The notes: a model not told the origin generated them from the letters alone. A DNA stretch of 55,413 nucleotides from a virus (IMGVR_UViG_3300034027_000007:1-55413); one strand, 5' to 3'. Counted from the stretch's first letter, positions 1 through 55,413 are shown. Numbers and translations are program-made.

Positions 1-37
1 CACAAAAAAACACCCCCCCATATCGCAAGGAGGGCGC
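1..37 (+). repeat. Left terminal inverted repeat (candidate hairpin telomere half-site)
   Basis: CACAAAAAAACACCCCCCCATATCGCAAGGAGGGCGC matches the reverse complement of 55377-55413 except at positions 1 and 31. Confidence 0.9.
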
Positions 38-63
38 TGTCTAGATTTGGATCATGCTTGAGA

Positions 64-1500
64 CTAGCTCAATCTTCTTTTGGTTGGTGCGTCGATCCAT
101 TCAGCACCTAAGTTTGATTGTGTCCTGCGGGTAGTGGTTTGTTTTTCCTGACGCTGTAACTCGACGGCCTCAGCCTCGGCTTTCTCGTCCCGCTCGTCAT
201 GCCAATCACTGGCCAAAACGTTGTTAGCTTTGATGTTGTTTTCGGCTAGGTGTTGGATCAAATTCCAATCCTCAAACACTCCTGTTAAACTTTCTTGCCC
301 TTGCCGACAATCGATCTCCCAACCGTTCGAGGGAGTCCAAAACAGCGCGGCCTTATCTTTGCGCGGTTTGCCTATCTCACCCCCTGTAACATTCCAGCTT
401 TTAATATCTGACTGGCTGCTAATCAACGTACCTACTCGAATGTTGATTGTTTCTAGCTCCTGCTTGATGGTTACAAACCGCTCGAATTCAATCTCTCGCC
501 CGGTAAAATAAACCATTGAATCGCGCTCGCCTTTTGTCAGTTTTTTGTGATTTGTATACTTAGGAGTCCTGTCAAAATGTTTGTAGTCAGCATTTGCCAA
601 AAGATGATCGACCTCGCCTAATTCGTCAATCGATTTACCTACCGGATCGAAAGTTTTAATTAACCTTGCCGTGAATTTGTAAGCGTACATTCCCTGATAA
701 TCTGATCTACACCACCGAAAGGCTTGACCGCCCAAACAGATATTATTGTTATCAAAAAATAACTCGATTAAAGTTGGCTGACCTTCGGCAACTGGCTTGA
801 CTTGATATGCAGGTTTTTGATTCTTGTTTACAAGCTCAGCAGTGCTGATATTTTGTGCGGGTGTAGGTGCGGGCCATTTTGGTAATGACATCAACTGATC
901 GTGCAATTCAACAGCCCGCTCGTCATTCTGTAAAATGTCGATAATGTTATTAAGTAACTGGGCTGTTGTACCTTCCCTTAATTGTCGCTGCACCCCTTCG
1001 TGCAATGATTTAATATCTGTGCCATCGCGGGTAAGTAGATGCTCATAAAAGTCTCGCAGTTGCTCAGTGCTTTTATAGCAACTTAGCGCATAATGCAAAT
1101 CGGGTTCTTTTGAGGTTAAATGCTTAGCCAATTGTGCAGCCCAACCCCTGATCGTGCTGAGTGTTGGATATTCCGGCTCAGGGTCAGCAGGAGTATAGCC
1201 AGCGCACTCCGGCGCAAAACCTCGATCGTCCGTGGGGTAAAGATCGCGAAACAACAGCGAGTTATTTTGCCCAACCCTGAGATCGTCAAAACAGAGTCCG
1301 TATTCGGTAAGAAACCGATCCAAAGTGTCAAGAGCTAACCGAGCATCCTCTAAATGCAATTTAGCGAGCGGGTGGTAACAATCTGCGGTTGCATCAACGT
1401 GCAAATAAATAGTCTCGTGCGTGAAGGCGAAACCGTTTCTATGAGCAATTGCTGAGGCAATAAGTCCGATAGCTTGTTTGTAGTGTTGCAGGTGTGACAT
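64..1500 (-). CDS. Hypothetical protein (478 aa); shares a ~45-aa domain with 53725..54375
   Basis: Long ORF downstream of the conserved promoter motif at 1523-1545; YPTLSTIRGWA...HYAL...TEQLRDFYEHL segment. Confidence 0.75.
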   Translation of the reverse strand: MSHLQHYKQAIGLIASAIAHRNGFAFTHETIYLHVDATADCYHPLAKLHLEDARLALDTLDRFLTEYGLCFDDLRVGQNNSLLFRDLYPTDDRGFAPECAGYTPADPEPEYPTLSTIRGWAAQLAKHLTSKEPDLHYALSCYKSTEQLRDFYEHLLTRDGTDIKSLHEGVQRQLREGTTAQLLNNIIDILQNDERAVELHDQLMSLPKWPAPTPAQNISTAELVNKNQKPAYQVKPVAEGQPTLIELFFDNNNICLGGQAFRWCRSDYQGMYAYKFTARLIKTFDPVGKSIDELGEVDHLLANADYKHFDRTPKYTNHKKLTKGERDSMVYFTGREIEFERFVTIKQELETINIRVGTLISSQSDIKSWNVTGGEIGKPRKDKAALFWTPSNGWEIDCRQGQESLTGVFEDWNLIQHLAENNIKANNVLASDWHDERDEKAEAEAVELQRQEKQTTTRRTQSNLGAEWIDAPTKRRLS

Positions 1501-1522
1501 GGTAGTTAATTTGTGGGATTGT

Positions 1523-1545
1523 TACATTATACCACCTTATCTTAA
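1523..1545 (-). promoter_or_regulatory. Conserved promoter/operator element (copy 1)
   Basis: Minus strand TTAAGATAAGGTGGTATAATGTA with extended -10 TGGTATAAT, just upstream of the ATG at 1500. Confidence 0.75.
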
Positions 1546-1583
1546 CTTATCTGGACAAATTTTAAAAAAGTTTTTTAGCCATC

Positions 1584-1605
1584 AAAAAACCCCTTGCGGG
1601 GCTTA
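1584..1605 (-). terminator. Probable intrinsic terminator
   Basis: CCCC-TTGC-GGGG stem next to an A-run (U-tract on minus strand), downstream of 1626..2237. Confidence 0.5.
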
Positions 1606-1625
1606 GCTTCATCGTTGGCTATTGG

Positions 1626-2237
1626 CTAATTTGTTGAGGCTTTAGGCGGTGGGACATATTCAAATATATGAAAATCGATTTTACCGCTATATCCTGGTTT
1701 AATGCCACTAACACCGATGTATTTAGCCTCGGCAGTATGGAACCATTCAAGAATAATCGCATCTTTGTTAAAATGGTAAGGCTGTATGCCTGTCTGGCTT
1801 AGTGCTGTGTTTTCTAACAACAAAGTAAGTTGCAAGTGTACAAAATCGGCTATCGAACTGTAAGACCCCCTATAATCGCGCTCAAAGTTGGCTATTGATT
1901 CGCCTTTTGCACAGACATGATTAATGTAACTTGCGAGAGCGTCCTCATATACCGTAAAGATTGAACCGCAATTGCCATTATCGCGTCGGTGAAAATATTT
2001 TGTAAACTCCAAATCGATTCGCGCTCGTTTTTGATACCTCAGATGTGCTTCCTCATAGGTGTTAAACGTTTCGCGTTGGTAATGTTCATCAGCCCAAGTT
2101 TTGTAAATACCTACACCCCATTCTGACTCGCTCAATCGCCGAAAAATTAAATACTCGCTAGTTTTTTTGCCGTTTTTATCTAGAATGCGGGCCGCTTTGA
2201 TGGCTTTAGCTGTAATCGAACCTAGAATGTTTGACAT
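1626..2237 (-). CDS. Putative ArdA-like antirestriction protein (C-terminal half) with an unrelated N-terminus
   Basis: FERDYRGSYSSIADFV...PYHFNKDAI resembles the ArdA F-x3-Y-x-G-x-Y-x-S-x2-DF...YFD pattern; less acidic than typical ArdA. Confidence 0.45.
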   Translation of the reverse strand: MSNILGSITAKAIKAARILDKNGKKTSEYLIFRRLSESEWGVGIYKTWADEHYQRETFNTYEEAHLRYQKRARIDLEFTKYFHRRDNGNCGSIFTVYEDALASYINHVCAKGESIANFERDYRGSYSSIADFVHLQLTLLLENTALSQTGIQPYHFNKDAIILEWFHTAEAKYIGVSGIKPGYSGKIDFHIFEYVPPPKASTN

Positions 2238-7814: not shown

Positions 7815-8339
7815 TTAGTGGTAGCCGCGATCGGCTTCCGTCTCAGGGTGGCTAGCTGCCTTTAAACGCTCCCACAACGGCAACAGCCTTTTATTTTTTG
7901 GTTGATATAAATGCTGTACAAATAAGGGATACTCCCTCGCATACATCTCGTATAGCTTGGGGTTGTTTGCCTTACTGGCTTCAGTGTTGGCTATCCTGTC
8001 GGCTAATTTTACAATTAGTCCAATCTCGCTAGACATTACCCTCGATAGCACTGTTTTGATTTGGGTGATTCTATCTTGGCTTTCGGGGCTGCTAATTACC
8101 CACACAGCATAAGCGATCTCAATACCAAAATTTGCCTCCAATTCTTCATAAGTTGTTTGGGTATCCTCTAAAGTATCGTGCAACCATGCCGCCGCTTGCG
8201 TTAACGGCTCGTTGAATCCTAAAGTCTGGAGTATCTCGGCAACCCGCTCTAAATGCACAGAGTAATTATATCTGCCGTATTTTTGACCTTGATGCTTTTG
8301 TAGTGCAAATTGTCTCGCACGGGCAACAATTTCATCCAT
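7815..8339 (-). CDS. HD-domain protein, RelA/SpoT hydrolase-like (small alarmone hydrolase/Mesh1-like)
   Basis: FALQKHQGQKY, YSVHLERV, AAWLHDTLEDT, VKLADRIAN; ATG at 8339 preferred over 8381. Confidence 0.85.
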   Translation of the reverse strand: MDEIVARARQFALQKHQGQKYGRYNYSVHLERVAEILQTLGFNEPLTQAAAWLHDTLEDTQTTYEELEANFGIEIAYAVWVISSPESQDRITQIKTVLSRVMSSEIGLIVKLADRIANTEASKANNPKLYEMYAREYPLFVQHLYQPKNKRLLPLWERLKAASHPETEADRGYH

Positions 8340-8390
8340 AAAAAAAACGCGGTTAACCACCACCGCGCAAGGACTAAACAACGCTAGAAA

Positions 8391-10233: not shown

Positions 10234-11028
10234 TTAAACTGTTCCCAACTGACCCAAACAAGCTCGCAATTCTGCAAGCACTGCTTGTATGTAGCGGTTA
10301 TTTTTAGTAGTTCGCCACCGACTGTCTATCACCTTGTAAGTGTTGCTCGCGTTGCGGTTTGCCGTGACGCGCAACGGAAGATCGACGCCGGGCCTCACAC
10401 CCGCTTGCCTGTCGCTTGGATCGCCCTCAATTTCACTGATGGCACAAACCAGCTTAACAATCGGGTGATCGGTCAGAGGGTCAATAATGCTGAATTGCCG
10501 ATAGCTTTGACCGCCATCGATAGAGACAGCCCCCGACATCAACGGCGCGGCCCAGATAATGCTTACTGGCGGTTGCGGTGCTTCAGTCGCGGTGCTGTTT
10601 GGGAGCGAATCGAACAGCGCCATAGAGTTAGCAGCCAAAGCACCGATCTTTGCTCGGATCACCGCCTCGAATTGGTCATTGAGTTCGCTCAAACGATCGC
10701 TGAACTCGCGGGCGCTGTCTTGGTCATTAGACATAATGGCAGCTTGCTCGGCATCGGCTACCCGATCGATCTCTGCCAAAATTTCCGCCTCGATGTCGGT
10801 GTCTGCCGTGTCCGGGACATTTCCGGGACGTGCATCGGACACGGTAGCAACTGCCGGGACGGCTTCAACTGCTGGGACTGCAACAGCGACAGCGGCCAAA
10901 ATGCCAGAAATCCAGCTAGTTTTGAATCGAGCATCCCCTGCGGGTTCTGCGTTGGTTTGGATTGCAATCTGTTTGAGATCCTTAATAGGTAGTTGGATCA
11001 GTGCTTCTGCGGTATAATTGATAGTCAT
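10234..11028 (-). CDS. Hypothetical protein with N-terminal Rho-N/HeH-like motif
   Basis: LIQLPIKDLKQIA...GDARFKTSWISGIL; ATG at 11028 lies downstream of the conserved promoter and leader motif. Confidence 0.65.
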   Translation of the reverse strand: MTINYTAEALIQLPIKDLKQIAIQTNAEPAGDARFKTSWISGILAAVAVAVPAVEAVPAVATVSDARPGNVPDTADTDIEAEILAEIDRVADAEQAAIMSNDQDSAREFSDRLSELNDQFEAVIRAKIGALAANSMALFDSLPNSTATEAPQPPVSIIWAAPLMSGAVSIDGGQSYRQFSIIDPLTDHPIVKLVCAISEIEGDPSDRQAGVRPGVDLPLRVTANRNASNTYKVIDSRWRTTKNNRYIQAVLAELRACLGQLGTV

Positions 11029-11105
11029 GACATTTGCGAGCTTTAAGGTGGTTTGCTGTGTTAGGCGGGTGTTGAGCTGTGGGACGGTCAACACCCGCAA
11101 TTATT

Positions 11106-11128
11106 TACACTATACCACCCTATCTTAA
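11106..11128 (-). promoter_or_regulatory. Conserved promoter/operator element (copy 3)
   Basis: TACACTATACCACCCTATCTTAA, identical to copy 2. Confidence 0.75.
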
Positions 11129-11282
11129 GCAATCGGGATAAGCTTAAAATAGGGTTTATTAATATTTAATGAGTTTTTCGCTTTGCTGATAACATAAGCT
11201 TATTAGAGCGCTTGTGGTTTTTGCCGGGATATGTAAGATAAGCTGGGATAGTGTACAGCTAACGCAAACCACCTTAAAGACT

Positions 11283-11831
11283 ATGGAAACGATCGCCACG
11301 CTAGACAAAACGCAAGCAGATCAACTGCTCGACTGGTGCAGCCGTCAGGAATTGGGCCCCGAACACTATGCCGGAAAACTTACCGCCCGCCGTCAGAAAT
11401 GGTGGGGGCTTGAGGCTGAGATCCTCGGCTCTAGCGGCCGTTGGCTCGTTCACCAGCGGGACGCGATTCAATCTGATGAGTATTTAGCCAGCTTAAAGGC
11501 TAAGTACCGCCCTGACGCTAATTCTGTTTTGCTCTACCGCTATGAGATAGGGGCCGGCATTGGTGAGCACAGCGACAAGGATTGCTTTGAGCCGATGGTT
11601 GTTTTGGTCAATCTTATTGACGAACTGCCGGATCTGTTTGGCGGCCGCCCGCCTTGTCGCTTCCGGTACGGCTCCAAACCGGGCAAGGCCGGCACGTTTG
11701 AATCCGTACCGCGTTACCTTGACCTACAGCACGGTCAAATAGTGCAATTTAACAGCCGAGTCCTTCACGGCTTACCCAAGCTTAAAACGGCTCGCTATAG
11801 CCTCCAATTTCGCCGAGTAGTTACCCCATAA
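11283..11831 (+). CDS. AlkB-like 2OG-Fe(II) dioxygenase
   Basis: NSVLLYRY..GAGIGEHSD (HxD), LHG, RYSLQFR (RxxxxxR); ATG at 11283 follows the conserved leader motif. Confidence 0.85.
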   Translation: METIATLDKTQADQLLDWCSRQELGPEHYAGKLTARRQKWWGLEAEILGSSGRWLVHQRDAIQSDEYLASLKAKYRPDANSVLLYRYEIGAGIGEHSDKDCFEPMVVLVNLIDELPDLFGGRPPCRFRYGSKPGKAGTFESVPRYLDLQHGQIVQFNSRVLHGLPKLKTARYSLQFRRVVTP

Positions 11832-11845
11832 TCGCAGGAGTTCCA

Positions 11846-12220
11846 ATGGCTAAGAATACTTATGTTGCAATCGAGCAAGCGGCTATTTTGTTAAAGCAAT
11901 TATGCTCGCAAGTCAATCAAGCCGCTTTAGGTTTCACAACTGAACACGAGAATGTAATCATCAGTTTTGAGGACGTTTTGCCCACTTCTGGCACTCGGAC
12001 ATTCTGTAAGGCTGTCATAGTGTCCGAGGCTGAGTTAAACGAACTCAGAGAAGCACAGAACGAGCTAGCGGCAATCAAGGCCGGAAATATGGCTGAGGCA
12101 ATGGCAAGCGGTAAGCGCTTGAGGTCGGCTACCATACCCGAGCTATATCAAGAGCTAGGTTTTAAACTCGGAATGGTGCAGCGGCCACCGCTCAACTCCG
12201 AGGGCAACCCAAATGATTAG
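11846..12220 (+). CDS. Hypothetical protein (124 aa)
   Basis: AGGAG RBS; overlaps the next gene. Confidence 0.7.
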   Translation: MAKNTYVAIEQAAILLKQLCSQVNQAALGFTTEHENVIISFEDVLPTSGTRTFCKAVIVSEAELNELREAQNELAAIKAGNMAEAMASGKRLRSATIPELYQELGFKLGMVQRPPLNSEGNPND

Positions 12221-12443
12221 CGAGCGGCCCGAGTTTGTGTTTACTTTAGAAGAAGCACAAAGCAATCTAGCAGCGCTCTGCGAGCAAGCTAAGAACAATC
12301 AGAACATTGTGATCCGCCTCCCTGACGGCACTCAATTCGCTCTAGTTACGGTTGAGGATTTAAACGCTCTAATAGACCAAGCGCATCAACTGATGCAAGT
12401 TTGCCACAGAGAGATTGAGAACCTCGGCTCAATCCTCAAATAA
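12213..12443 (+). CDS. Phd/YefM-family antitoxin-like protein
   Basis: FTLEEAQSNLAALCEQA..NIVIR...FALVTVEDL fits the Phd/YefM pattern. Confidence 0.7.
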   Translation: MISERPEFVFTLEEAQSNLAALCEQAKNNQNIVIRLPDGTQFALVTVEDLNALIDQAHQLMQVCHREIENLGSILK

Positions 12444-12454
12444 CGCTAACAGGG

Positions 12455-12489
12455 AATAAAAAACCGCTCTACAGTTGGGCGGTTTTTTA
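12455..12489. terminator. Bidirectional intrinsic terminator
   Basis: TAAAAAACCGCTC-loop-GGGCGGTTTTTTA. Confidence 0.8.
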
Positions 12490-12503
12490 CTGTCTTTACC
12501 AGC

Positions 12504-13508
12504 TTAAAAGGGGATTGGGTCTATATCGTTTAAATGATCGTTTAATCGTTTCTGGGGTGCTACAACTTGACCGTCTATCATGGGTTGCCATCTTTGCTCT
12601 GGAAACAAATTGAACTGTTTGCCCTCGTTATTCCTGATAATTCCGTTTGATGACACATAAGTAGTTGTGAGGGTGTAGCCGTCCTTAAGTTTAATTACTG
12701 TCGGCTCTTTCTTGAACGGCAAACCTGTATATTTTCGCCAGTCCTGCTTGGGTTTTATCCAAATAGGGAATCGGATAGACAAGCCACCGTCACCGATGAA
12801 AATGTGCAATTGCACAAGGTTTGCGCCTGTCCAGTGTACGCACGTCATTGTATCCACATTAATCATCCGCTCGCCCCAAAAATGATTAATGTTTGCCTTA
12901 ATTTCATCCCAATTAATCAAGCGAGAGTCACAGTACAAAACCCGACTTTTTATCACTGGATCTCTTAATTCCTTCCGCAACAAATAGAGCGCTCTGACCA
13001 CACTTACTAAATTTATCGAATAATCGATCACCGTTTCTCGCTTGCCGCGCTTCCACAAGTCCCGGACATTTCCCGGACATGACGGGGTAATCCCAAAGCC
13101 GAGATTGCTTTGTGCTAACTGTTCTAAATTATACCCACGTCGGCAGATTCCACTTAGAGGCTCGCCCGCCGCCCTCCGAACCTCAACCATCAAATCGTAG
13201 GTTGTGGTTAGGTTTATCCCGTAGGCGGCGCAAAGTTTGTCCCCAAACTCTAAGCCGTTAAAGCTGACAATCTCATCGGCCTCGCGGATCAGTGACTCAA
13301 CCCGCAAAAAACCGTCATCTTTCGTGAAGGCATAAAACTGCCGATCCTCTGGGAACCAGTCGGCATGAACCGCAAACACCGCTAAACCTAAATAACCATA
13401 GTCTGTCCAGTCCGCCTTATCTCTGATCCGGTTTTCCGGCGTGACGGCGTACACTAAGGTCTTTTTTGCGGGCTGCTTGCCAAACAACAGGGATTTAATA
13501 AAGCTCAT
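12504..13508 (-). CDS. DEDD/RNase H-like 3'-5' exonuclease homologue, catalytic residues degenerate, with C-terminal extension
   Basis: IVSFNGLEFG, TYDLM, GYNLEQLAQSNLG, LWKRG..VIDYSINLV match the fold motifs but lack the DxE, FD and YxxxD acids. Confidence 0.65.
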   Translation of the reverse strand: MSFIKSLLFGKQPAKKTLVYAVTPENRIRDKADWTDYGYLGLAVFAVHADWFPEDRQFYAFTKDDGFLRVESLIREADEIVSFNGLEFGDKLCAAYGINLTTTYDLMVEVRRAAGEPLSGICRRGYNLEQLAQSNLGFGITPSCPGNVRDLWKRGKRETVIDYSINLVSVVRALYLLRKELRDPVIKSRVLYCDSRLINWDEIKANINHFWGERMINVDTMTCVHWTGANLVQLHIFIGDGGLSIRFPIWIKPKQDWRKYTGLPFKKEPTVIKLKDGYTLTTTYVSSNGIIRNNEGKQFNLFPEQRWQPMIDGQVVAPQKRLNDHLNDIDPIPF

Positions 13509-13845
13509 AAGTACCTCAAACGTTGATTTTGCGTGACGGTGTTTTGGGAGTTAGCGGCCAAAGTGCGATCGGTGCTTCCGGCGCATACAGGACAAGACTT
13601 GTAATTGATGAGCCGTTCTGTTTTTCCGGCAGATTTTTTTAGTGTTTGCCGAGGCCGGGGTTTTTTTACCGATGTTTGCCGGAGTTCCGGTAAAAACGCT
13701 GATCGCACGTCGGCAAGTGAGTAGAGGGGCTTTCAGCAATTTTAAGACAAGGTAGCAGCGATCGCCGTTGCCGATGCTCCGGCAGATACTGCCAGAGAAA
13801 AAAGACTAAAAACGGCTGTAAGCCTTACTGGTTATATGTCGGTGG

Positions 13846-16296: not shown

Positions 16297-16315
16297 AAAA
16301 AATAACTCCTGTGTT

Positions 16316-38830: not shown

Positions 38831-39116
38831 TTTGTTGATTTGTCGATCGAGAGTACGGTAAAGGCGGGCGAGAGGTCTAAGGCTCTGCCTGTCTTAAACT
38901 AAGATAACATAACCACAAACAATTATCAGGAGGTTAATGCACGGTGAATTAAATCAAACGGATCGGGTATAAGTTTTAACTTGGGCAAGTTGTATCAAAG
39001 CTCGCAGAGATGGGTCACTCACTGCGAGCTTAAAATTTTGATAATATTAGTAAATAAATCAGCCGCTATTTAAGGGCTGATTTGTAGTTATTAAGTTATT
39101 TAGCGAGGGTTAAATC

Positions 39117-39581: not shown

Positions 39582-39582
39582 A

Positions 39583-39891: not shown

Positions 39892-41048
39892 AAACAGCAC
39901 CGTTTGACCGCTGGGACACGATCGCTCTGAGAGTTTACAATTTACCCGAGCTAGGATGGGCGATCGCTGATGCCAACCCAGAGTTAGCCGATCAGTTGGT
40001 GCTGTCGGCCGGCTTGACTGTTAATATCCCGGATTTAAACGCACTGAGGCGACCGCTTACCGCCGCCAACCCAGCGAGAGAAGATGGCGGCCAATTTCTG
40101 GGACTGCCGCCAGATGTACCCAGAGCGCCGGCCGTGCCTTCGGGCCCGGTCGCAGGTGATTATATACCGATGTCAGCAATTGGCGTTACAGTTGCGCCGT
40201 TAGAAGCCGGCCTTGTCCCGTTAGCGCGGCTACCCGCTTACCCAACACTGACAAGCTTGGGGGCTGTTTCAACAGCAACTTTTAACAGTTCAATAGCTAA
40301 TTTTGTCACCACAACCGCGTTAAATAGCGCAATAGCTAATTTTGTCACTACAACCGCGTTAAATAGCGCAATAGCTAATTTTGTCACTACAACCGCGTTA
40401 AACACTGCGATAGCTAATTTTGTCACCACAACCGCGTTAAATAATACAATTGCTAATTATGTCACTACAAGCACATACAATACAGGTATTTCTAATTTGG
40501 TCACTACAAACACATTTAACACAACTTTGAGCGGGTATGTCACAACAAGTAATTTAAATACTGCATTAAACAACTACATACTCTCTAATCAAATTGGTAC
40601 TACCATACCATCAATGACAAGCGGAAAGGTAAACCCGCAATACTTAGACTATCCAACTTTGACAACTCTAAACGCAGTCAGTAAAGATAGCGTTGATGAG
40701 ACAATTAACGGTAACAAACATTTTACAGGGTTTACCAGACTTGGGGATGATTCTATTAAGAAAAAGACAGTACAAGGCATAACAAACGCCGGACAAGGGC
40801 AACAGGTTAGCGTTACTCACGGCGTCAACGCTACTAAAATTAGGTCGGTTAGCGGCAATATTTTTTACACGGCGTCCGCCTTTCCTTTGGCTGATAATTT
40901 ACCCTCTGTGCCTATTATGGGAAAACAGGCAGGTTTTGCCAGCACTATCAACATCAGCGGAACGTCAATTAATGTTATTAACGATGCGAGCAATTCAGGT
41001 TCGATTCTCAGCAGACCTTTTATACTAACAATTGAATACACATCATAA
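39882..41048 (+). CDS. P2 gpX-like (LysM-type tail X) domain fused to a fibre-like repeat region
   Basis: DRWDTIALRVY..IADANPEL..LSAGLTVNIP; IANFVTTTALNSA repeats; ETINGNKHFTG. Confidence 0.8.
   Translation: MQVKTAPFDRWDTIALRVYNLPELGWAIADANPELADQLVLSAGLTVNIPDLNALRRPLTAANPAREDGGQFLGLPPDVPRAPAVPSGPVAGDYIPMSAIGVTVAPLEAGLVPLARLPAYPTLTSLGAVSTATFNSSIANFVTTTALNSAIANFVTTTALNSAIANFVTTTALNTAIANFVTTTALNNTIANYVTTSTYNTGISNLVTTNTFNTTLSGYVTTSNLNTALNNYILSNQIGTTIPSMTSGKVNPQYLDYPTLTTLNAVSKDSVDETINGNKHFTGFTRLGDDSIKKKTVQGITNAGQGQQVSVTHGVNATKIRSVSGNIFYTASAFPLADNLPSVPIMGKQAGFASTINISGTSINVINDASNSGSILSRPFILTIEYTS
40291..40520 (+). repeat. 39-bp coding tandem repeat (IANFVTTTALNSA): 4 near-perfect plus degenerate copies
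   Basis: Visible in DNA and protein. Confidence 0.9.
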
Positions 41049-42208
41049 TGCTAACAAATAACATATTAAAACCGAGCGTAAAACTTACAATAGAGGAACG
41101 TTACACGATAACAGTAGAGCAAAATAATTCTAATGCCGATGTATTCGATCGAATCTATAACATAGAATCCGACAAAATAGATATTGAATATAACAACGAA
41201 GGCAACAATACCTCAACGCTAAGACTTATAGTTCGATCGTCTCCAAATATTTTTAATAATGAATGGATACCCAAACCATTACAATACATCAAGTGTCAGT
41301 TTTACTATGTGGGTGACAGCGTAACACTCAATGCTGGCAATTTTCAAATAGAATCAGTTAGAGAGCGTATTGGCAACGCTTACGACACGTTAGAGATCCG
41401 GGCGATATCTGTGCCTATTATTGGCAGGATGTACGAAAAAAAGAATCTAAGTTTTAACAATGTTTCGTTGGAAGTATTGCTGAGAGATAAGGCTTTAGGT
41501 TTGAACTTATCGCCAAAGATTCAAGTGCCAGAATTGTTTATAAATGCCAATCAAGTAGAGCAAAGCGATTTAGATTTTTTAAGGACGCTTGCCGAGCAGT
41601 GGGGGTTTAATTTCACCATAGATAACGGCTCGCTAGTGATGGCGGGCGATGCCTATTTTAGAACAGTGCCTGCTATTTTAACTATGAGCAGAAGCGAGTA
41701 TAAAAGTCTCGATTTAGAACACACAGGCTATAACACTTATGCTAGCTGTGATGTTAGTTACAATTGGTTGGGTGAAAACAAAACCCTAAATGTGAAAGAT
41801 TGGGGGGTATTCACTGATAATTTAATTTCTTTGCGTTCTAGCCGCCGATTAGATCACGAGATGAAATTTCCAGTAGTCAGCCCCTACCATGCCGCTTATG
41901 CAGGATTGGAAAAATTGATTAGGGTAAACAACGGACAAATTAAGGGGACGCTAACAGCAATAGGGCGACCCGAATTAGTAGCACTCAACAATATTGAAAT
42001 ACTCGGCAACCGCTTCAACGGCAAGTATCAGATCGAGTCAGCCGTACACAGGTTTAACACTTCTGACGGTTGGCGCTGCGAGTGTAAGATAAGATGGTTG
42101 CCCAAACGCGCCGGCCCTGTACAATTCACCTGGTATGATATGTTAGAGATTGCCAGAGGTTCGATTGTAGGTTTCGGTATTGATATACCCGGAATTCCCG
42201 GAATATAA
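41048..42208 (+). CDS. P2 gpD-like baseplate hub/late control D protein
   Basis: GNFQIE, QVEQSDLDFLRTLAEQWG, GRPELVA, GKYQIESAVHRF..DGW. Confidence 0.88.
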   Translation: MLTNNILKPSVKLTIEERYTITVEQNNSNADVFDRIYNIESDKIDIEYNNEGNNTSTLRLIVRSSPNIFNNEWIPKPLQYIKCQFYYVGDSVTLNAGNFQIESVRERIGNAYDTLEIRAISVPIIGRMYEKKNLSFNNVSLEVLLRDKALGLNLSPKIQVPELFINANQVEQSDLDFLRTLAEQWGFNFTIDNGSLVMAGDAYFRTVPAILTMSRSEYKSLDLEHTGYNTYASCDVSYNWLGENKTLNVKDWGVFTDNLISLRSSRRLDHEMKFPVVSPYHAAYAGLEKLIRVNNGQIKGTLTAIGRPELVALNNIEILGNRFNGKYQIESAVHRFNTSDGWRCECKIRWLPKRAGPVQFTWYDMLEIARGSIVGFGIDIPGIPGI

Positions 42209-42216
42209 GAGGCAAT

Positions 42217-42510
42217 ATGAGCGCGTTTAAATTGGGTCAGATAGGATCTGAAGTAGCCGGAATTGATGACATCTTGCAGCAGTTGCAAGTGCTTTTTATG
42301 ACCGAAAAAGGAAGTTTACCCGGCGATCCTAATTACGGCTTAGCAATCAGTCAATACATACCTTATAGGGATGAATCTAAGCCTTTAATCATAGGTGAAA
42401 TAATGAACGCGATCGGGCGTTACCAATCAAGCATTAGAGTGCAAAAAATCGAGTTTGAAGGCGAGCGAGTGACTGTAAGGATTGAAGGTATAGGCACAAT
42501 AACGATTTAA
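42217..42510 (+). CDS. gpW/gp25-family baseplate wedge protein
   Basis: DDILQQLQVLFMTEKGSLPGDPNYG..AIGRYQ. Confidence 0.88.
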   Translation: MSAFKLGQIGSEVAGIDDILQQLQVLFMTEKGSLPGDPNYGLAISQYIPYRDESKPLIIGEIMNAIGRYQSSIRVQKIEFEGERVTVRIEGIGTITI

Positions 42511-44796: not shown

Positions 44797-46254
44797 TCAA
44801 ATAGGTATCAGGGAGCCGCCGCGACTGTCTGGCGGTCTATCATCAGACTGATTGCCCGTTTCAATCGGTGCATCGCTGAGTTTATTTGTGGGTTGCGGTG
44901 TTTCTGGCGATTTGTTCGCGGTTCCTGTGGAGTTGGCGGGTTGTGCCAGCACGGCGGCTTCACTTGCCTCTAACTTCAATTCCTCAAGCTCTCGCTCGAT
45001 ATCTGCTGTAAAACCCAATTGCTCAATAGCCGTGCGGCGAGATACCAAACCGCGATCGCGAGCCTCTAACACTAATTTTTTGTGTTCATCGCCCTGATAG
45101 ATGCGCGGTAAAATCTTTACAACTACTTTTTGTTTTACGCCTAAAAAATAGTTAGCAACAGTCAATAAATCGCTAATATAGTAACTAAATTTGCGCGAAT
45201 CGCTCCTAACTAAATTAGCAAAATCAAAGCGGCTTTGCTCTCTACTGATGCCGCTTAAAACTAAATTAGACCCTAGTATAAAAGTCTGGCTTGTTTGTTC
45301 GTATATAGACAAGCTAAAACCGCTAACAGTGTTTAAAAAGGTTTCTGGATCGCTTGGTTCTTCGATCTTTACTTCTGGTTTGGTGTAGTTTGTTATCTGC
45401 TGTTTTTCGTCTTTAAGCGGTAAGCCCTGGATGAACTGCACCACACCCGCCCCTGTTGGTAGTCCTTCCGGTCTAGGCGTAAATTTTGCCCTACCTCGGC
45501 TATCATAAGCCCATTCGCCGGGAGGTTGCGCGTTGAGGACAGATTTTTGCACCCACCCACCTTTTAACAGGTTATTTACTAACAGCGTAAGCGCTGAGTT
45601 GATTGCGTTCTGGTTTTCTTTCAGTGACTCGGTTACAAGTTGCGGCAAGTTGACCTCAACTATAGTGAAACCGCCGCCTAGATCGAGTTTTAACTGTTCC
45701 GTTACGCGCTCGCCGTCTACTGTTTCAATAACTGTTAAACCGTTCTGTAAATACTGTCTTTCGATTAACGATCTGCCGTCCTGATAATAAGCGTAATCAA
45801 ACCTATATAAAGTGTTGTCATTATTCCGATATGCTCGAACACTATGCTTGGGCGGACAGTGTACCTCTAAGGCTTCTTTTTTTGTTTCGGATGTATAAGT
45901 TTTCTGGAAATATAGCCGCAAGTAGGCCCGCCCCTCAACTTTCGCTTTGGTAGCCGCTTCCTCGAACGGGTGGCCGAACAGTCCCGAGTTTTCCCTCTCC
46001 CACTTCTGTAACAAGTCTTTCAAAAGCGGATCGACTTCGGATAAGTGGGAGGCTGAGAGCGCCGAGACGTGCCTGTTGACTACTTCCTTAATTTTGTTGC
46101 AGCTTTGAAAGTTCCGGGCGATGATCCGGGACGTGATGATATTGCTTTCTTGAGTCAAATCGAGAATGGTGCTTAGCCATTCTGTAACGAACACCTCGCC
46201 CGTGTACCAACCCCAAGCCGGGGCTTCCAGAAAATCAGGATAATTTCGATACAT
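44797..46254 (-). CDS. Portal protein (SPP1 gp6-like)
   Basis: 485 aa; NKIKEVVNRHV, GRAYLRLY, LSGISREQ, GLVSRRTAIEQLG..DIERELEEL. Confidence 0.8.
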   Translation of the reverse strand: MYRNYPDFLEAPAWGWYTGEVFVTEWLSTILDLTQESNIITSRIIARNFQSCNKIKEVVNRHVSALSASHLSEVDPLLKDLLQKWERENSGLFGHPFEEAATKAKVEGRAYLRLYFQKTYTSETKKEALEVHCPPKHSVRAYRNNDNTLYRFDYAYYQDGRSLIERQYLQNGLTVIETVDGERVTEQLKLDLGGGFTIVEVNLPQLVTESLKENQNAINSALTLLVNNLLKGGWVQKSVLNAQPPGEWAYDSRGRAKFTPRPEGLPTGAGVVQFIQGLPLKDEKQQITNYTKPEVKIEEPSDPETFLNTVSGFSLSIYEQTSQTFILGSNLVLSGISREQSRFDFANLVRSDSRKFSYYISDLLTVANYFLGVKQKVVVKILPRIYQGDEHKKLVLEARDRGLVSRRTAIEQLGFTADIERELEELKLEASEAAVLAQPANSTGTANKSPETPQPTNKLSDAPIETGNQSDDRPPDSRGGSLIPI

Positions 46255-46529: not shown

Positions 46530-49500
46530 ATGAGCAAATATAAATTAGCCAGCAAAAAAAATCTCTGCCCTGTGTGCGGGGCCCATAAAGATTGTAAAGA
46601 ATTACTTGGCGGCACTCAAATACTCTGGCTGTGCAAAAAACAGGGATCGTTAAACAAAGGTGAGAAAATACCCGGCACAGATCACAATATTTGGATTTGT
46701 TTAAAACCTGCTGAGGCCGCGATCTGGGCAACGATGGCGATCGCTGACGATCAGGAGATAACCCCAGAGGAACGAGCCAAGCGTAAAGCCGATTTGGACG
46801 CTCGCCAGCAAGAGGAAAAACGCAAGCGACAAGAAGCGCTCGCGATGGAGATGCCGGCCGGCGAGAGGGACGAACACTACAGAAAGATTTTTAGCCGCCT
46901 AGTCTTGACGAGCGGCGACTGTCAAAACTTGCTCGATCGGGGCTTTACTGAGGAACTATTGAGGCTGACAGGTTTTATATCTGTTGATAAGTCTCAAGTG
47001 ATTAGCGGCCTCTATCCTGACAATTTACCGGGATGCGTAGCGAGCGGCGGCAACAGTTGGCTGCAAGTTTCGGGGCCGGGTATCCTTTGCCCGTTTCCTG
47101 ATGAGCAAGGGCGGATCGTCGGTGCTCAGTTGCGGCTCAGGACTACTGGCGAGGATGAATCCCGTTATCGCTGGTTTGGTTGGAACAATGCAAGCAACTT
47201 GAACGGTGAGAAGCCGATCGCTTGTTGGGATTTTTCGCAGTCCGAGCAGCAGGATCGGATCTGGTTGGCTGAGGGTACGGGAATTAAACCCGCACTGGCT
47301 AGCTACCGATTGCGAGCACCTGTCGCGGGGGCGGCGGGGGGACTGTTTTCGAGCAGCCCCCAAAACACTCTGAGAACTCTAGAGCATCTGGCCGCTAAGT
47401 ACGGCACAAGGATGCTGGTAATGGCAGTTGACGCGGGGGACGTTGTTAATAAAGACGTGATCAAGCGGTTGCAGCGTCAGCGTAAATTCTTGCAAGATAA
47501 CGGGTATAACGTGACCTTTGCTTGGTGGGGTCAAGTTACAAAAGAGCATGATGATATTGACGAGCTAGCCGATCTAAGTGCAATCGCATACCTCGCCCCA
47601 AATCAATTCGATGCGATCGTTGCAGAAGCCAACGCACCGATAACCGATGAAGTGCGATCGCGATCGCAGTTAGTAGTGCAACCGCCGCGCCGCGATCGCA
47701 GGGAAGAAGCGCAACAGCAAGCGAAAGAAGTGAAAGAAGCGCGATCGGTGGTGCGGTTACAGCCTCCTGAGATTGAGCGTCCGAAAGGGTGGAAATCTTG
47801 GCAGAACTGCCGGAAGTTTACGCCGGACATTATACAAAGCAGTGAATTTGTAAAGTTTGACGCGCCAGAACCCGGCACAATTCTGGCTGTTAATGCTGGT
47901 TTGGGGACGGGTAAAACTAAAAATTTGGAGGATTTATTTGCACCCGGCGGTGCGTATGAAGGCAAGGGCGCGTTTGGTTTCTTTGCACGTAACAGCTTGA
48001 TCTATAATTTTATAGGCAGAATTCCATCATTCACGCATTTGAATGAGGAATTACTCATAATGCTGAGAGATCCGGGATCTCGTTTTGCATTGTGTACAAA
48101 CAGTTTAAAGAAAATTACAAACCCAGAATGGTTTGAAGGTAAGATTCTAATTATTGACGAATTCCCAGCAGTATCGCTGCACCTTGCTTGCAGTGCAACA
48201 CACCGGAAAGATCGCATACAATCTTTAGAAATATTTAAACAGGCATTTACGCTTTGCGAGTCGGTAATTATATTAGGCGGCGACCTTACCGACTGGCAGG
48301 TAGAATGGGCGGGCAAACAAGCGCCAAATAAGAAAATAGTCAAGCTTAAAAACAACGGCAAAAGACCGAGGGCAAAAGTCGAAATTTTGTTAGGAACTCC
48401 CACAAAATCGGGAAGCTTTGACAGTGCCAAATTATCGCCTTTTATTGCGCCTATTGTTAGTGCAAATCAGCCTATTACTATTTTCACTGACAGCCAAAAA
48501 CTAGGCGAGCAAATTGAATTACTATTAATTGACGCTGGTAAAAAAGGTTTAAGAATAGACTCTAAAACGGTTTATCCTAAAAGCGAGGCGAGACTCTGCC
48601 TTGATAATTGCAAGAAGTGGATTGAGGCAAATTTGCCCGATTATCTTCTCTGCTCGCCTACTTCCGAAAGCGGTGTTGATATGAATTTACCGGGCTATTT
48701 CTCTGATAGTTACGGCTTGTTTAGAGGAATTCTGGCAACCGATCAGCAGATGCAAATGATGGCGCGCAACCGCGATCCTAATTGCAACTGGCACATAAGT
48801 GTGCCTAAGCAGAGTTTTTTAAGGGGAAGCGACAAAGATTACAATTTAGACAATATCAACGCAGCAGCTAACAAATTGTTGGAGTTAGCTGAGATGGACA
48901 TCTCGCATTTACGCCTAAATAAGGACTGGTTAGGCGAGACTTTCTTACAGTACATTGAGGAAGCTCACAACGATGTCAATAACTTATTTGCTTTGAAATA
49001 CAGGGCAAAAGAAGCATTCGAGAAAGAGAATTTAAGAGAGTGCTTAATATTTGCTTTAGAGGAAGCCGGCCACGAGATAAACCAGACAGCTTATTTTGAA
49101 AATGCCAAAACGGAAGCGGAACTAAAAGCCGCTGGGGAAATGGTGAAAGACGCAACTGCCGCTCAAATCTTCCATGCGGAAGATATAACCGAGAAACAGG
49201 CAGAGGACTTAAATGCTAAGTGGGCATCGACTTGGGAAGATAGGGTGAAACTGATTAAGGCAGGCTATAAGAAGCTATTGCCGGGTATAGACGAGACAGA
49301 GTTTTGGAATAAAGAATTTATCAAGTTTCTGAAGTACGATCACCCTAAAGCGATAGCCGGGGCTGAGTTGCTGTACCTGTTCAAGAATCCCGATTTGGCA
49401 AATAAGAAGCAACACAATTTTTGGGCGAAAATAGCCACTGAGCGAGCGATTTTCTTGCCTGATATCACATCGTCTCACCTCAAGGTTAAAGCCCTGCAAT

Positions 49501-50150
49501 TCATCAATTTTGAGCGGTTTTTAGACCCTGATAAAACTTGGCACAAAAACAGCCCTGAGATTTTGGAATTGGTCAAGCTAGGGAACAGGCCGCGAGTGTA
49601 CAACGTGTTAGGGCTGTTTGTCCCCAAGTTTACAAAAGGGAAGCGCAAGGGCGAATATGATGGCATCACTTACCTGCGAAAATTGCTCGGCATGGTAGGG
49701 CTGCAATTGGGCCCGTGTCAGCAGAAGCAAGTTGAGGGCAAGCGCTTCAATGAGTACGCGCTCGATCGGGTTTGGTTGGAGAATCCTGTTAGGGTGGCGA
49801 TCGCTGACGCGGTGGCCCGGCGCTATGAAGAGTTTAGTCTCAATTGGGTGATGCCAGAAGTGCTGACAACACCCGTGCGTGACGTGTTAGAAGCCGTTGA
49901 GCCGCCAGATTTGACCAACGAGCCGGAAACTGATCCGGATGGCTTAAATTGGCGTGAGATCGAATTAGAAGTTAAAACACCTTTTGGCAAGTTGAGGGAG
50001 GGCGATCGGGTGATGCCGATCAGCCAACCGAGGCGCAAGGGCGAAAGCGAAAACTCTTGGCTGATATGGATCAAGTCTGCTGTTGGTGTGTTTTTAGTCG
50101 ATCTCGGGATGTTACAATTGTATTTTGAGATGCTCCCGCCCACAGTTTAG
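46530..50150 (+). CDS. Plasmid replication protein, CyRepA1-like primase-helicase
   Basis: N-terminal CPVCG..DC..C zinc finger, GAQLR, RYRW, LAEGTGIKP, DIDEL (TOPRIM-like), AGLGTGKT, IIDEF, CSPTSESGVDM, QMMARNR. Confidence 0.88.
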   Translation: MSKYKLASKKNLCPVCGAHKDCKELLGGTQILWLCKKQGSLNKGEKIPGTDHNIWICLKPAEAAIWATMAIADDQEITPEERAKRKADLDARQQEEKRKRQEALAMEMPAGERDEHYRKIFSRLVLTSGDCQNLLDRGFTEELLRLTGFISVDKSQVISGLYPDNLPGCVASGGNSWLQVSGPGILCPFPDEQGRIVGAQLRLRTTGEDESRYRWFGWNNASNLNGEKPIACWDFSQSEQQDRIWLAEGTGIKPALASYRLRAPVAGAAGGLFSSSPQNTLRTLEHLAAKYGTRMLVMAVDAGDVVNKDVIKRLQRQRKFLQDNGYNVTFAWWGQVTKEHDDIDELADLSAIAYLAPNQFDAIVAEANAPITDEVRSRSQLVVQPPRRDRREEAQQQAKEVKEARSVVRLQPPEIERPKGWKSWQNCRKFTPDIIQSSEFVKFDAPEPGTILAVNAGLGTGKTKNLEDLFAPGGAYEGKGAFGFFARNSLIYNFIGRIPSFTHLNEELLIMLRDPGSRFALCTNSLKKITNPEWFEGKILIIDEFPAVSLHLACSATHRKDRIQSLEIFKQAFTLCESVIILGGDLTDWQVEWAGKQAPNKKIVKLKNNGKRPRAKVEILLGTPTKSGSFDSAKLSPFIAPIVSANQPITIFTDSQKLGEQIELLLIDAGKKGLRIDSKTVYPKSEARLCLDNCKKWIEANLPDYLLCSPTSESGVDMNLPGYFSDSYGLFRGILATDQQMQMMARNRDPNCNWHISVPKQSFLRGSDKDYNLDNINAAANKLLELAEMDISHLRLNKDWLGETFLQYIEEAHNDVNNLFALKYRAKEAFEKENLRECLIFALEEAGHEINQTAYFENAKTEAELKAAGEMVKDATAAQIFHAEDITEKQAEDLNAKWASTWEDRVKLIKAGYKKLLPGIDETEFWNKEFIKFLKYDHPKAIAGAELLYLFKNPDLANKKQHNFWAKIATERAIFLPDITSSHLKVKALQFINFERFLDPDKTWHKNSPEILELVKLGNRPRVYNVLGLFVPKFTKGKRKGEYDGITYLRKLLGMVGLQLGPCQQKQVEGKRFNEYALDRVWLENPVRVAIADAVARRYEEFSLNWVMPEVLTTPVRDVLEAVEPPDLTNEPETDPDGLNWREIELEVKTPFGKLREGDRVMPISQPRRKGESENSWLIWIKSAVGVFLVDLGMLQLYFEMLPPTV

Positions 50151-53724: not shown

Positions 53725-54375
53725 ATGACTACCAACGAAAACAACATCGAATACACAGTCAAAATTACAGGCGACATTAACCCGAAAGCTTGGGAAAATT
53801 TTTGTGCAAGACAGCAAGGCTCGGAAGCCCCCCAAGCAACCATCGAAGTTTATCCTAGTCTAGAGACGATCGAGGGTTGGGCCACCATCTTAACCGGATA
53901 CTGGAATACACCAGACGTTAAATTTAAGCACCATTACGCTTTAGAACATTTTCAGACTACCGACCAATTACAGCGGTATTACGATCATCTCTGCGAAACT
54001 ATCGAGCATGAAACTCGGCAAGATTGGATCTGTAACAACAAATCTCACCTTGCTATTGCAATTATCCGTATTCTCAAAGAGGAGGCTTATTGCAAAAAAC
54101 AGGAAGAGTTAGAAGCGCTGCAAGTTAAAAAGGCTAATGATTCACAACTTAGTGAAGCCATTAAAACAAACACCGTGATCAAGTGCGAAAAACTTGCGTA
54201 TTGCACAGTACCCGCTTACATGGTATTAAGGCAATTAAAAGGCGGGGATAGTCCAGAATGGGCAACGCATTTTTACAACGCCGATCAAGACTCTTTCGAG
54301 TTTGGTTACTATACCCGCGATTTTAAAAAGGCTCTAAACAATTTTGATGCGCGTGTAAAGGAATATGCCGGGTGA
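53725..54375 (+). CDS. Hypothetical protein sharing a domain with 64..1500
   Basis: YPSLETIEGWA..HYALEHFQTTDQLQRYYDHL; conserved promoter/leader upstream. Confidence 0.75.
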   Translation: MTTNENNIEYTVKITGDINPKAWENFCARQQGSEAPQATIEVYPSLETIEGWATILTGYWNTPDVKFKHHYALEHFQTTDQLQRYYDHLCETIEHETRQDWICNNKSHLAIAIIRILKEEAYCKKQEELEALQVKKANDSQLSEAIKTNTVIKCEKLAYCTVPAYMVLRQLKGGDSPEWATHFYNADQDSFEFGYYTRDFKKALNNFDARVKEYAG

Positions 54376-54554
54376 TGGATTCAAGTATTAACCCAGCACC
54401 CGAGCAGCCATCTGCCAACGAGCTAGACCACTGGGAGCGCACCGGAGTTGATATGTATGATGTTTACCCAAATTTTCGGGATCTGCCTGTCGCTGAACTT
54501 GATGCCATATACGACGGATTAGTGGAGGGAACAGCCTATGAGGGTTTAATCTAA
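54372..54554 (+). CDS. Small acidic hypothetical protein
   Basis: GTGA overlap with the previous gene; terminator downstream. Confidence 0.55.
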   Translation: MMDSSINPAPEQPSANELDHWERTGVDMYDVYPNFRDLPVAELDAIYDGLVEGTAYEGLI

Positions 54555-54594
54555 GGAATCTACCACAAAACAATCTAACAACGCTCACAAGCTA

Positions 54595-54625
54595 AAATAA
54601 ACACTTCTAACGGGGTGTTTATTTA
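54595..54625. terminator. Intrinsic terminator
   Basis: AAATAAACACTTC-loop-GGGGTGTTTATTT. Confidence 0.65.
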
Positions 54626-54691
54626 TTTATGCCTGTTATCCCAAAATATGTATGATATATATTAAACAATCAGTTTACCAAAGGATAAATT

Positions 54692-55336
54692 ATGGTCAGT
54701 ACAGCACAATCAAAGGAAAAAAGTTTTGCCGAAAGAATTGTTGCCTATATGGAAACACAAAAGTATAAAATTTTTCGGGACAAAGGAGAGAAAAACATAG
54801 TTTATGTTGAGGGTGCAGACACTAACGGACGGACAAACGACGATAGACCCAACTATTTTAACGATCTTAGGCTTATTATTGCGTTTGACCAAGCATTTAG
54901 ACCAGTGATTGAGGGCATTTATATTGCTAGCACAGAGCCGGGATTTTACTATACTGATAACCCTATGAACCCCGCAGGGGCTGCTCGGATCAAGTTTGGA
55001 CAATACACGGCTTGGCAAGTCGGTTTACATGGCCACTCAAGCCCCCATGAGGCTTTAGTTCAGGTTGAGGAAGTCGCCGTGCATAGGGACTATAACCGCG
55101 ACATGATGCGGACAGGCGATGCGATTGATTGGGGTTTGTTTGGTATAAACCAACACTGGGCATATAACTATCCGATTGAGGATATTAGCGACGCCGGGGC
55201 GGGTTGCCTGATTGGTCGGCTCTGGGAAGAGCATCTTGATTTTATGCGGCGAGTCAAGAGCGATCGGCGTTACATAGCAAATCGGAATTTTGTTTTCCCC
55301 ACAACAATCATTGATCGGACTAAGTTACCAGAATAG
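54692..55336 (+). CDS. Putative endolysin (cyanobacterial peptidoglycan-active domain, His/Cys motif)
   Basis: NIVYVEG, FNDLR, TEPG, GAARI, ALVQ, FGINQH..GAGCLIGR; I recall this domain being linked to peptidoglycan-binding repeats in cyanobacteria; lysin role inferred. Confidence 0.6.
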   Translation: MVSTAQSKEKSFAERIVAYMETQKYKIFRDKGEKNIVYVEGADTNGRTNDDRPNYFNDLRLIIAFDQAFRPVIEGIYIASTEPGFYYTDNPMNPAGAARIKFGQYTAWQVGLHGHSSPHEALVQVEEVAVHRDYNRDMMRTGDAIDWGLFGINQHWAYNYPIEDISDAGAGCLIGRLWEEHLDFMRRVKSDRRYIANRNFVFPTTIIDRTKLPE

Positions 55337-55376
55337 TTTGCAGACTAAAATCTAAACAACCTCACCTATCATGCCT

Positions 55377-55413
55377 GCGCCCCCCTTGCGATATGGGGGG
55401 GTGTTTTTTTGTA
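55377..55413 (-). repeat. Right terminal inverted repeat (candidate hairpin telomere half-site)
   Basis: GCGCCCCCCTTGCGATATGGGGGGGTGTTTTTTTGTA, reverse complement of 1-37 with 2 mismatches. Confidence 0.9.

Follow-up and report, generated by a model that had tools for sequence, protein, structure and literature searches.

A candidate telomere phage of a cyanobacterium encoding a contractile tail and a plasmid-type replication protein

Introduction

Little is known of the temperate phages of filamentous cyanobacteria, and the replication mechanisms of the plasmids of these bacteria have only recently been named. The phages VP882 and PhiHAP-1 have contractile tails. In the accessible text of PMC12042878 these two are named as marine telomere phages, and Enterobacteriaceae, Pseudomonas, Stutzerimonas, Vibrio and Halomonas are named as hosts of telomere phages. 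For the linear plasmid pNPM9 of Nostoc N6, covalently closed hairpin ends were inferred from palindromic reads and coverage, and in 2018 the authors suggested that the linear plasmids of this strain are phage remnants (accessible text of PMC5987646). TelT of LoPAST (telomeric transposons) resolves an inverted-repeat substrate that needs 28-bp half-sites (available part of bioRxiv 10.1101/2024.11.13.623437). Here we analyse IMGVR_UViG_3300034027_000007, one whole virus record of IMG/VR consisting of a single contig of 55,413 bases (“the window” below means this entire stretch), which we read, with a probability of roughly 0.55, as a cyanobacterial telomere phage of the N15 kind, built from local plasmid parts. 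An initial annotation had compared the window with the characterised protelomerase phages of proteobacteria; that background was incomplete, since telomere phages of the myovirus type were already known and Nostoc hairpin plasmids carrying a protelomerase and a terminase had been published (PMC5987646, in the text accessible). Full-text searches of the literature revealed no description of a cyanobacterial phage with a protelomerase or of a cyanobacterial linear plasmid prophage; further literature drawn on, from the parts available, comprised PMC12510456, PMC4490671, PMC13603067 and bioRxiv 10.1101/2023.04.12.536658.

Results

The window combines a protelomerase fusion with inverted terminal repeats

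The open reading frames (ORFs) of at least 80 aa in the window, 62 in number, were scanned against Pfam at E ≤ 0.01, and 33 of the proteins were re-scanned at E ≤ 0.5. The protelomerase proposed in the initial annotation was borne out: the product of a long leftward gene (Table 1) matches the ResT/TelK family PF16684 with 61.8 bits (cut-off 27, E = 8e-17), and a six-frame search gave 66.6 bits. This protein carries four N-terminal repeats, each of about 60 aa, followed by the ResT/TelK catalytic domain at residues 549-744, an ASCH-like domain at residues 810-949 and a DNA methyltransferase-like domain at about residues 1049-1229, the last of which matches phage DNA methyltransferases and shows FSNPPYG (an NPPY motif) in the translation; its low-complexity linkers are encoded by tandem DNA repeats. 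A phmmer alignment to Agrobacterium TelA (PDB 4dwp), which is weak (E = 0.22), keeps TGxRP, K, LR, ILGH and the Y of LNY/LSY, which we take to be the catalytic Arg, Lys, Arg and His and the tyrosine nucleophile. The fused ASCH and methyltransferase domains would serve to modify the DNA of the phage itself or would act on nucleic acid. Further fusion proteins of this kind were found, three of 1126-1283 aa on contigs of 15.9-44.1 kb and a fourth of 1166 aa on a 7.3-kb contig.

In line with the initial annotation, 37-bp inverted repeats form the very ends of the record, and a BLAST comparison of the record with its reverse strand recovers them at E = 6e-10. The two ends differ at two of the outer 37 nt, namely at position 1 (C versus T) and position 31 (A versus G); positions 2-46 are complementary to 55368-55412 (45 nt, 89%), and past position 37 the two ends diverge. 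If the ends are hairpins, the predicted left head-to-head junction reads TTTTTTTGTG joined to CACAAAAAAA, and the right one TTTTTTTGTA joined to TACAAAAAAA; both predicted junctions are, from the sequence itself, perfect palindromes with an alternating pyrimidine-purine centre, and such centres suit protelomerases. Neither end of the window folds back locally on itself, so the contig holds no hairpin read-through. An exact search for the 29-nt telomere core gave 0 matches in viral and metagenome contigs, a result of little weight as the window's own records may be excluded. One mark of telomere phages is a protelomerase together with inverted-repeat or palindromic end sequences, and the window has this combination. 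No phage-integrase, resolvase or DDE-transposase family of Pfam was detected in the 62 ORFs at E ≤ 0.01 or in the 33 proteins re-scanned at E ≤ 0.5, which agrees with the earlier statement that no integrase is recognisable.

The replication genes resemble those of cyanobacterial plasmids

The plasmid-type replication protein (Rep) predicted in the initial annotation was confirmed by the CyRepA1 profile NF042913, which the protein matches with 294.2 bits (cut-off 200) over profile positions 3-592 of 595. The CyRepA1 family is named for replicating resident cyanobacterial plasmids. Over as much as 94% of its length, the window Rep shares 25-31% identity with Rep genes carried by cyanobacterial plasmids, with matches in 124 plasmid records. 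When the protelomerase was used as a query against a collection of 50,697 phage records (tblastn, E ≤ 1e-5), only its ASCH and methyltransferase parts found matches and the catalytic part had none; the catalytic part matches at least 10 of the listed cyanobacterial plasmid records at 27-31% identity. Only four weak matches to the Rep were obtained in the phage collection, all of them in phages that are not of the N15 type, and a search of this collection for kinship with the N15 or VP882 groups gave no match to a protelomerase domain, an N15-type Rep or the DNA. Judged by these homologies, the replication pair looks as if it was drawn from the cyanobacterial plasmid pool and not from N15/VP882-type phages. 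The earlier proposal of an independently assembled element fits this picture, the protelomerase and the Rep being related to cyanobacterial plasmid genes and not to those of the N15/VP882 type.

Several plasmids of cultured Nostocales carry parts of the same backbone. Plasmid7 of Fischerella NIES-4106 (AP018305, 22.6 kb) has homologues of the protelomerase, the CyRepA1 protein and the terminase in the same order as the window, and its ends form a perfect inverted repeat of 1491 bp (AP018305.1, 1-1491 and 21141-22631) with mirrored genes at both ends; it is filed as circular and is probably a linear replicon despite this filing. Nostoc N6 pNPM9 has an imperfect terminal repeat of 156 bp and homologues of the protelomerase, of the 827-aa ATPase of the window and of the terminase, and Rivularia plasmid pRIV7116.01 has terminase and ATPase homologues together with an annotated protelomerase. 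The Rivularia plasmid NC_019679.1, filed as circular, contains a near-perfect palindrome of 2.2 kb (99.8%) at 4238-6452, which is what assembly through a hairpin end, or through a replicated junction left unresolved, would be expected to give. The small elements of 13-27 kb keep only the protelomerase, the P-loop ATPase, a Rep and a terminase, and the window head protein was absent from all four of the host genomes of such elements that were searched. A wider proposal, which we put forward tentatively and regard as somewhat unlikely, is that the lineage of the window is the intact parent of the 13-27 kb hairpin plasmids of Nostocales and other cyanobacteria, that these plasmids would be satellites or reduced forms packaged by telomere phages of its kind, that the two would make up a phage-plus-satellite system on hairpin-ended linear DNA that arose in cyanobacteria independently of the proteobacterial telomere phages, and that the coupling of protelomerase and methyltransferase would join resolution with self-marking.

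The window encodes a complete set of virion genes and points to a cyanobacterial host

To judge from profile matches, the window encodes a contractile tail of the Mu/P2 kind. The myovirus-type structural genes named in the initial annotation were recognised by Pfam and PHROG profiles as a head and contractile-tail set, and the virion gene set is complete, comprising the large terminase (TerL), portal, head protein, sheath, tube, tape measure, baseplate and an endolysin-like gene; the contractile-tail profiles PF04985, PF04965 and PF04865 scored above their cut-offs (Table 1). Further Mu-like signals were a match to a virion morphogenesis family and a weak match to the Gp37 family. The rightward tail stretch (34006..42510) is interrupted by two leftward ORFs (37982-38830). 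A query with the head protein in the single-protein scan of IMG/VR found nothing.

A cyanobacterial host, as proposed earlier, is well supported. The HIP1 motif (GCGATCGC) occurs at 17 sites against 0.80 expected, a number reached in 0 of 100 shuffles, the Rep belongs to the CyRepA1 family, the protelomerase matches cyanobacterial plasmids, and the nearest named homologues are cyanobacterial. The nearest cultured relatives of the terminase are Nodularia phages (36% identity), and the nearest named homologues of the endolysin-like protein are found in Microcoleus genomes (60-76% identity). Contigs nearly identical to the window are present in four metagenome runs from soil or biocrust. We read the host as a filamentous cyanobacterium of soil crusts; that it is Microcoleus-like is a guess.

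Two collinear genomes share the replication and packaging backbone

The gene order of the window is kept almost throughout in two further, collinear IMG/VR genomes, G002 (52.5 kb) and G003 (60.1 kb), with amino-acid identities of about 22-73% between matched ORFs. Common to all three are the protelomerase fusion, the ATPase, the exonuclease-like gene and an unusual block in which portal, Rep, a small ORF and terminase follow one another. TerL has 17 full-length relative clusters at 55-64% identity (P0002-P0018). No contig carrying one of these, or a relative of the protelomerase fusion, is longer than 58.7 kb, which fits free replicons of phage size. At the DNA level, no relatives of a 25-kb piece of the window (26000-50999) were found in 50,697 phage or 72,556 plasmid records. 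A partial terminase 97% identical to that of the window (P0001) lies on a 1.5-kb contig labelled as a Streptococcus pyogenes metagenome-assembled genome, a label that is almost certainly a binning or labelling error.

Both G002 and G003 end in what IMG/VR classes as inverted terminal repeats, with perfect stretches of 99 and 127 nt. These lengths match what we take to be common assembler word sizes, so the two contigs probably stop inside longer repeats and not at true tips. In all five of the repeat-bounded records examined (the window, G002, G003, AP018305 and pNPM9), the distance between the protelomerase gene and one end is 1.4-7.5 kb. The telomere sequence of the window is not conserved in G002, G003 or AP018305. 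The arms adjacent to the ends differ in gene content among the three collinear genomes, and variable end arms are usual for linear replicons. The genes nearest the two ends of the window (64-1500 and 53725-54375) share a domain of about 50-70 aa at 31-43% identity, which has no family match and occurs also in an end-proximal gene of G003 (58089-59096). We considered whether G003 is circularly permuted with respect to the window and rejected this, the match across the ends being this domain of the end-proximal genes.

On our best reading, the window is the whole or nearly whole genome of a temperate-type, contractile-tailed phage with a protelomerase replicon. The gene content, the terminal repeats, the family memberships and the conserved collinear lineage are observations; hairpin ends, lysogeny as a plasmid and the host genus are inferred. 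The CyRepA1-family Rep would start replication inside the molecule, as in N15, and the forks would run through both ends; each junction, made up of the 37-nt terminal repeat and its copy, would be palindromic and would be cut and resealed by the 1357-aa protelomerase into covalently closed hairpins, after which the element could persist as a linear plasmid without integration.

Markers of lysogeny and the structure of the ends leave room for other readings

A number of observations, collected in this section, weigh against a hairpin-ended phage kept as a plasmid. Neither ParA, ParB, ParM or TubZ families (E ≤ 0.5) nor a helix-turn-helix repressor family were found in the window proteins, and no N15-type SopAB/ParAB or CB/Cro-type genes were recognised in the window; the sole signal in the scans related to immunity or a genetic switch was a set of weak AntA/Rha-like matches at 52481-52885. 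No toxin partner was recognised for the Phd/YefM-like antitoxin candidate. With known markers of lysogeny and partition unrecognised, such markers give no evidence for either. The scan of species-representative genomes contained no close relative of TerL, and of 401 cyanobacterial genomes sampled a single one had the head protein, on a larger contig. PF16684 also matches Synechococcus elongatus among 14 control genomes, so the presence of a gene of this family in a cyanobacterium does not by itself imply hairpin replicons. The lack of a repressor, a partition system or an addiction pair, with the Phd-like match below its cut-off, and the rarity of relatives in host genomes favour the view that the phage is virulent, or in any case not kept as a plasmid, that Rep and protelomerase serve lytic replication only, and that the repeats are virion ends or an internal palindromic target. 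We consider this unlikely: the Rep belongs to a family named for resident cyanobacterial plasmids, the backbone of protelomerase, ATPase and TerL occurs on plasmids of cultured Nostocales, and we know of no virulent phage with a protelomerase.

The structure of the ends was examined on assembled Logan contigs of the four soil/biocrust runs, using window positions 1-8000; such contigs show presence, not absence. Neither a fold-back nor a circular junction of right and left ends was seen in the contigs of the four runs, and no contig of any run covers positions 38-478, an absence that contig data cannot show to be real. In run X1, a single contig matches the repeat (2-37) and, inward of it, the right arm; it is neither a fold-back nor the left end. 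In the outward direction it extends for at least 255 letters from the exact outer edge of the repeat into HIP1-like DNA that was found neither in the window, G002 or G003 nor in any fetched locus. Reads extending past the ends into chromosome had been named in the initial annotation as an observation that would refute it, and this one contig, which is unexplained, provides such an extension at the right end if taken at face value. A 24-mer from the extension had 0 exact matches in viral and metagenome contigs, again of little weight as its own records may be excluded, and with up to 4 mismatches it was absent from all fetched loci. The contig, presumably a k=31 contig, has a depth of about 4 and could be chimeric. 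In addition, the identical protelomerase and endolysin are recorded on a contig of 55,584 bp, 171 bp longer than the window. The earlier claim that the genome is complete holds in so far as the window spans the entire record, but its ends are of the class “linear” in IMG/VR, and the completeness estimate of CheckV is 77%.

If the repeats are not physical ends, the element could lie within a larger replicon, as an integrated or transposon-like prophage whose assembly was broken by variable flanks. The X1 contig, the longer contig and the CheckV estimate agree with this, as does the Mu-like structural module with its virion morphogenesis and Gp37 matches and a sheath 33% identical to that of BcepMu. 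We nevertheless find an embedded element quite improbable: no DDE transposase, MuB-like partner or integrase appeared in the scans, the close relatives were never on contigs longer than 58.7 kb, and a single contig of depth about 4 can be chimeric. Moreover, Rep and protelomerase, conserved in three collinear genomes, would be without a role. The termini of the window read ACA...TGT, the opposite order to the TG...CA of Mu/Tn7-type element ends. A transposable (Mu-like) phage, which the Mu-like tail and the X1 contig had brought into consideration, was rejected, no ORF having a match to rve, the Mu transposase or any other DDE family.

The ends could also be an effect of assembly, if the genome were circular or circularly permuted with one near-palindrome of 74 nt at which the assembler broke, the repeats being its two halves. 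A break at a palindrome gives exactly such ends, the contig ends contain no hairpin read-through, and the virion form of N15 holds an uncut palindrome. We give this very little credence, given that the four runs yielded no right-left junction contig, with the limit stated above for contigs; the site would also still be a protelomerase target, which makes it a version of the telomere-phage reading and not a refutation of it. A telomere phage with a cyanobacterial host, replicating from plasmid-derived genes, remains the reading we prefer.

Other genes and repeated sequence elements

The positions of the recognised genes and elements are given in Table 1. The 827-aa coiled-coil protein with a C-terminal P-loop is 53% identical to its counterpart in G002 and 46% to that in G003, and may be an FtsK/HerA-like ATPase, a lead only (Atlas features 0.81, TM < 0.5). 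The exonuclease-like domain of the 334-aa protein is likewise a lead (Atlas features 0.93), for which structure rows reach the bar for PF13482. AlphaFold models of two early proteins of 245 and 288 aa, built on three-sequence alignments, were too poor for a search (pTM 0.24 and 0.27). ARAGORN detected no tRNA genes and no Rfam families were found in the window, and PADLOC gave no match among the 24 accessory or unassigned proteins scanned.

An iteron with an 11-bp period occurs in five clusters (10808-10832, 13057-13082, 15043-15090, 16326-16352 and 19165-19205; repeat families D6 and D9), with 33 matches against 12.4 expected. One cluster lies just upstream of the ATPase gene, and the motif recurs at syntenic positions in G002 and G003. 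We propose that the iterons are an operator or centromere set, and together with the P-loop ATPase they are a putative substitute partition system; the centromere sites of N15 are dispersed as well. The perfect 127-nt terminal repeat of G003 carries subterminal iterons, a AAACGCATCC-like tandem word of 11-bp period at 29, 40 and 49. Just downstream of an iteron cluster of the window, an ORF for a highly acidic protein (18838-19143) is written by a 9-nt tandem repeat (family D1).

Four leftward genes each have a copy of a 65-nt repeat (63-86% identity to a reference copy) immediately upstream (1510-1574, 2250-2314, 11093-11157 and 38324-38388). On the gene strand the repeat contains a -10 element resembling TGGTATAAT or TATAGT, preceded by a doubled AGATAAG/AGATAGG word that is found also at 3620-3649 and 37916-37945; the repeat looks like a shared promoter with an operator. 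Three HIP1 sites, two of them overlapping, fall within 46 bases inside the Rep gene (47654-47699), a cluster that could be due to chance or be part of an origin inside rep. At the divergence of the baseplate and head operons there is a gene for a T5orf172/MUG113 (GIY-YIG-like) endonuclease (25057-25479), which lacks an equivalent in both G002 and G003 and probably represents a mobile insertion of the homing type.

Table 1. Coordinates and basis of assignment of genes and sequence elements in the window.
Feature	Position	Strand	Basis or remark
Left terminal inverted repeat, candidate telomere half-site (telL)	1..37	.	pairs with right end, 36 of 37 over positions 2-37
Protelomerase fusion, 1357 aa	3654..7727	-	PF16684; phrog_3193 5.6e-30; phrog_799 6.9e-27
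HD-domain phosphohydrolase (SpoT/RelA hydrolase-like)	7815..8381	-	PF13328 39.5 bits; phrog_990 2.1e-36; TIGR00691 partial
11-bp-period iteron, palindromic core GTCCGGGAC, five clusters	10808..19205	.	candidate operator/centromere set
Phd/YefM-like antitoxin candidate, 76 aa	12213..12443	+	PF02604 E 5.8e-06, 26.4 bits, below cut-off 29.8 (weak)
334-aa protein, N-terminal RNase H-fold YprB/DEDD-like exonuclease domain (lead)	12504..13508	-	conserved in G002 and G003
827-aa coiled-coil protein, C-terminal P-loop	13846..16329	-	Walker A AGSTGGKS at residue 502
Two putative fibre genes	19582-21590	-	suggested by position
P2-I-like protein	21683-23278	-	PF09684 31.9 bits; conserved in G002 and G003
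Baseplate J	24269-24964	-	PF04865 42.6 bits (cut-off 21.1); conserved in G002 and G003
Head and proximal tail module	25532..33839	+	phrog_29, PF05069, phrog_23, PF04985
Major head protein	27592-28788	+	181 relative clusters at E ≤ 0.001
Tail completion (Phage_tail_S)	29968-30399	+	
Sheath	31174-32541	+	phrog_23 1.7e-31; 33% identity to BcepMu gp39
Tube	32564-33070	+	PF04985 28.2 bits (cut-off 22.4)
Tape measure	34006-37914	+	TIGR01760 161.6 bits
Tail-X-like	39882-41048	+	tail module basis including PF05489
Hub/tail protein	41048-42208	+	tail module basis including phrog_52 5.6e-28
Baseplate gp25/W	42217-42510	+	PF04965 32.7 bits (cut-off 27.2)
Portal	44797..46254	-	phrog_64 8.7e-06; PF05133 weak; 59%/56% identity in G002/G003
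CyRepA1-family replication protein, 1206 aa (primase/helicase-type Rep)	46530..50150	+	NF042913
Small conserved ORF, possible small terminase	50159-50431	+	
Large terminase	50412-51860	+	PF03237 29.9 bits
Endolysin-like	54692..55336	+	phrog_3000 1.9e-37; phrog_33083 (endolysin) 3.9e-13
Right terminal inverted repeat, candidate telomere half-site (telR)	55377..55413	.	pairs with left end

Discussion

In the literature searched, as far as its texts were accessible, telomere phages are described from Gammaproteobacteria only. If the window is a telomere phage of a cyanobacterium, life as a linear-plasmid prophage would have had more than one origin, the small Nostoc plasmids with hairpin ends would gain a concrete source, and the hard-to-engineer cyanobacteria of soil crusts may have a natural vector backbone that transduces and does not integrate.

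Like N15, PY54, phiKO2 and VP882/PhiHAP-1, the window represents a tailed phage whose protelomerase gene is close to one end and whose ends are inverted repeats; a large Rep of the primase/helicase type and the lack of an integrase are further common features, as is the contractile tail in the case of VP882 and PhiHAP-1. It differs from the N15 and VP882 groups in that its protelomerase is fused to ASCH and methyltransferase domains and its host is a cyanobacterium, and its hairpin ends are predicted. With the Mu-like, BcepMu-like and P2-like myoviruses it shares the sheath, tail completion, the weak Gp37-family match, gp25/W, J and I; it has no transposase or MuB, and its replication genes are of the plasmid type.

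As in the accessible part of the TelT survey (bioRxiv 10.1101/2024.11.13.623437), where cyanobacterial protelomerases have varied domain architectures, the window enzyme is a multidomain protein, and the 28-bp half-sites are comparable to the 37-nt repeat of the window. The enzymes of that survey, in the text available, are located on chromosomes, plasmids or Tn7-like elements, the only phage being the N15 TelN control; TnsBCQ genes were not found in the window.

The likeness to the Nostocales hairpin plasmids (pNPM8-10, AP018305 and pRIV7116.01) extends to the protelomerase (27-29% identity) and TerL (30-32% identity), to the 827-aa ATPase shared with pNPM9 and the Rivularia plasmid, to the CyRepA1 protein shared with AP018305, to the location of the protelomerase near an end and to the terminal repeats, imperfect or long. 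The plasmids differ from the window in being 13-27 kb in size and without head or tail genes, whereas the window has the size and the gene set of a full virus.

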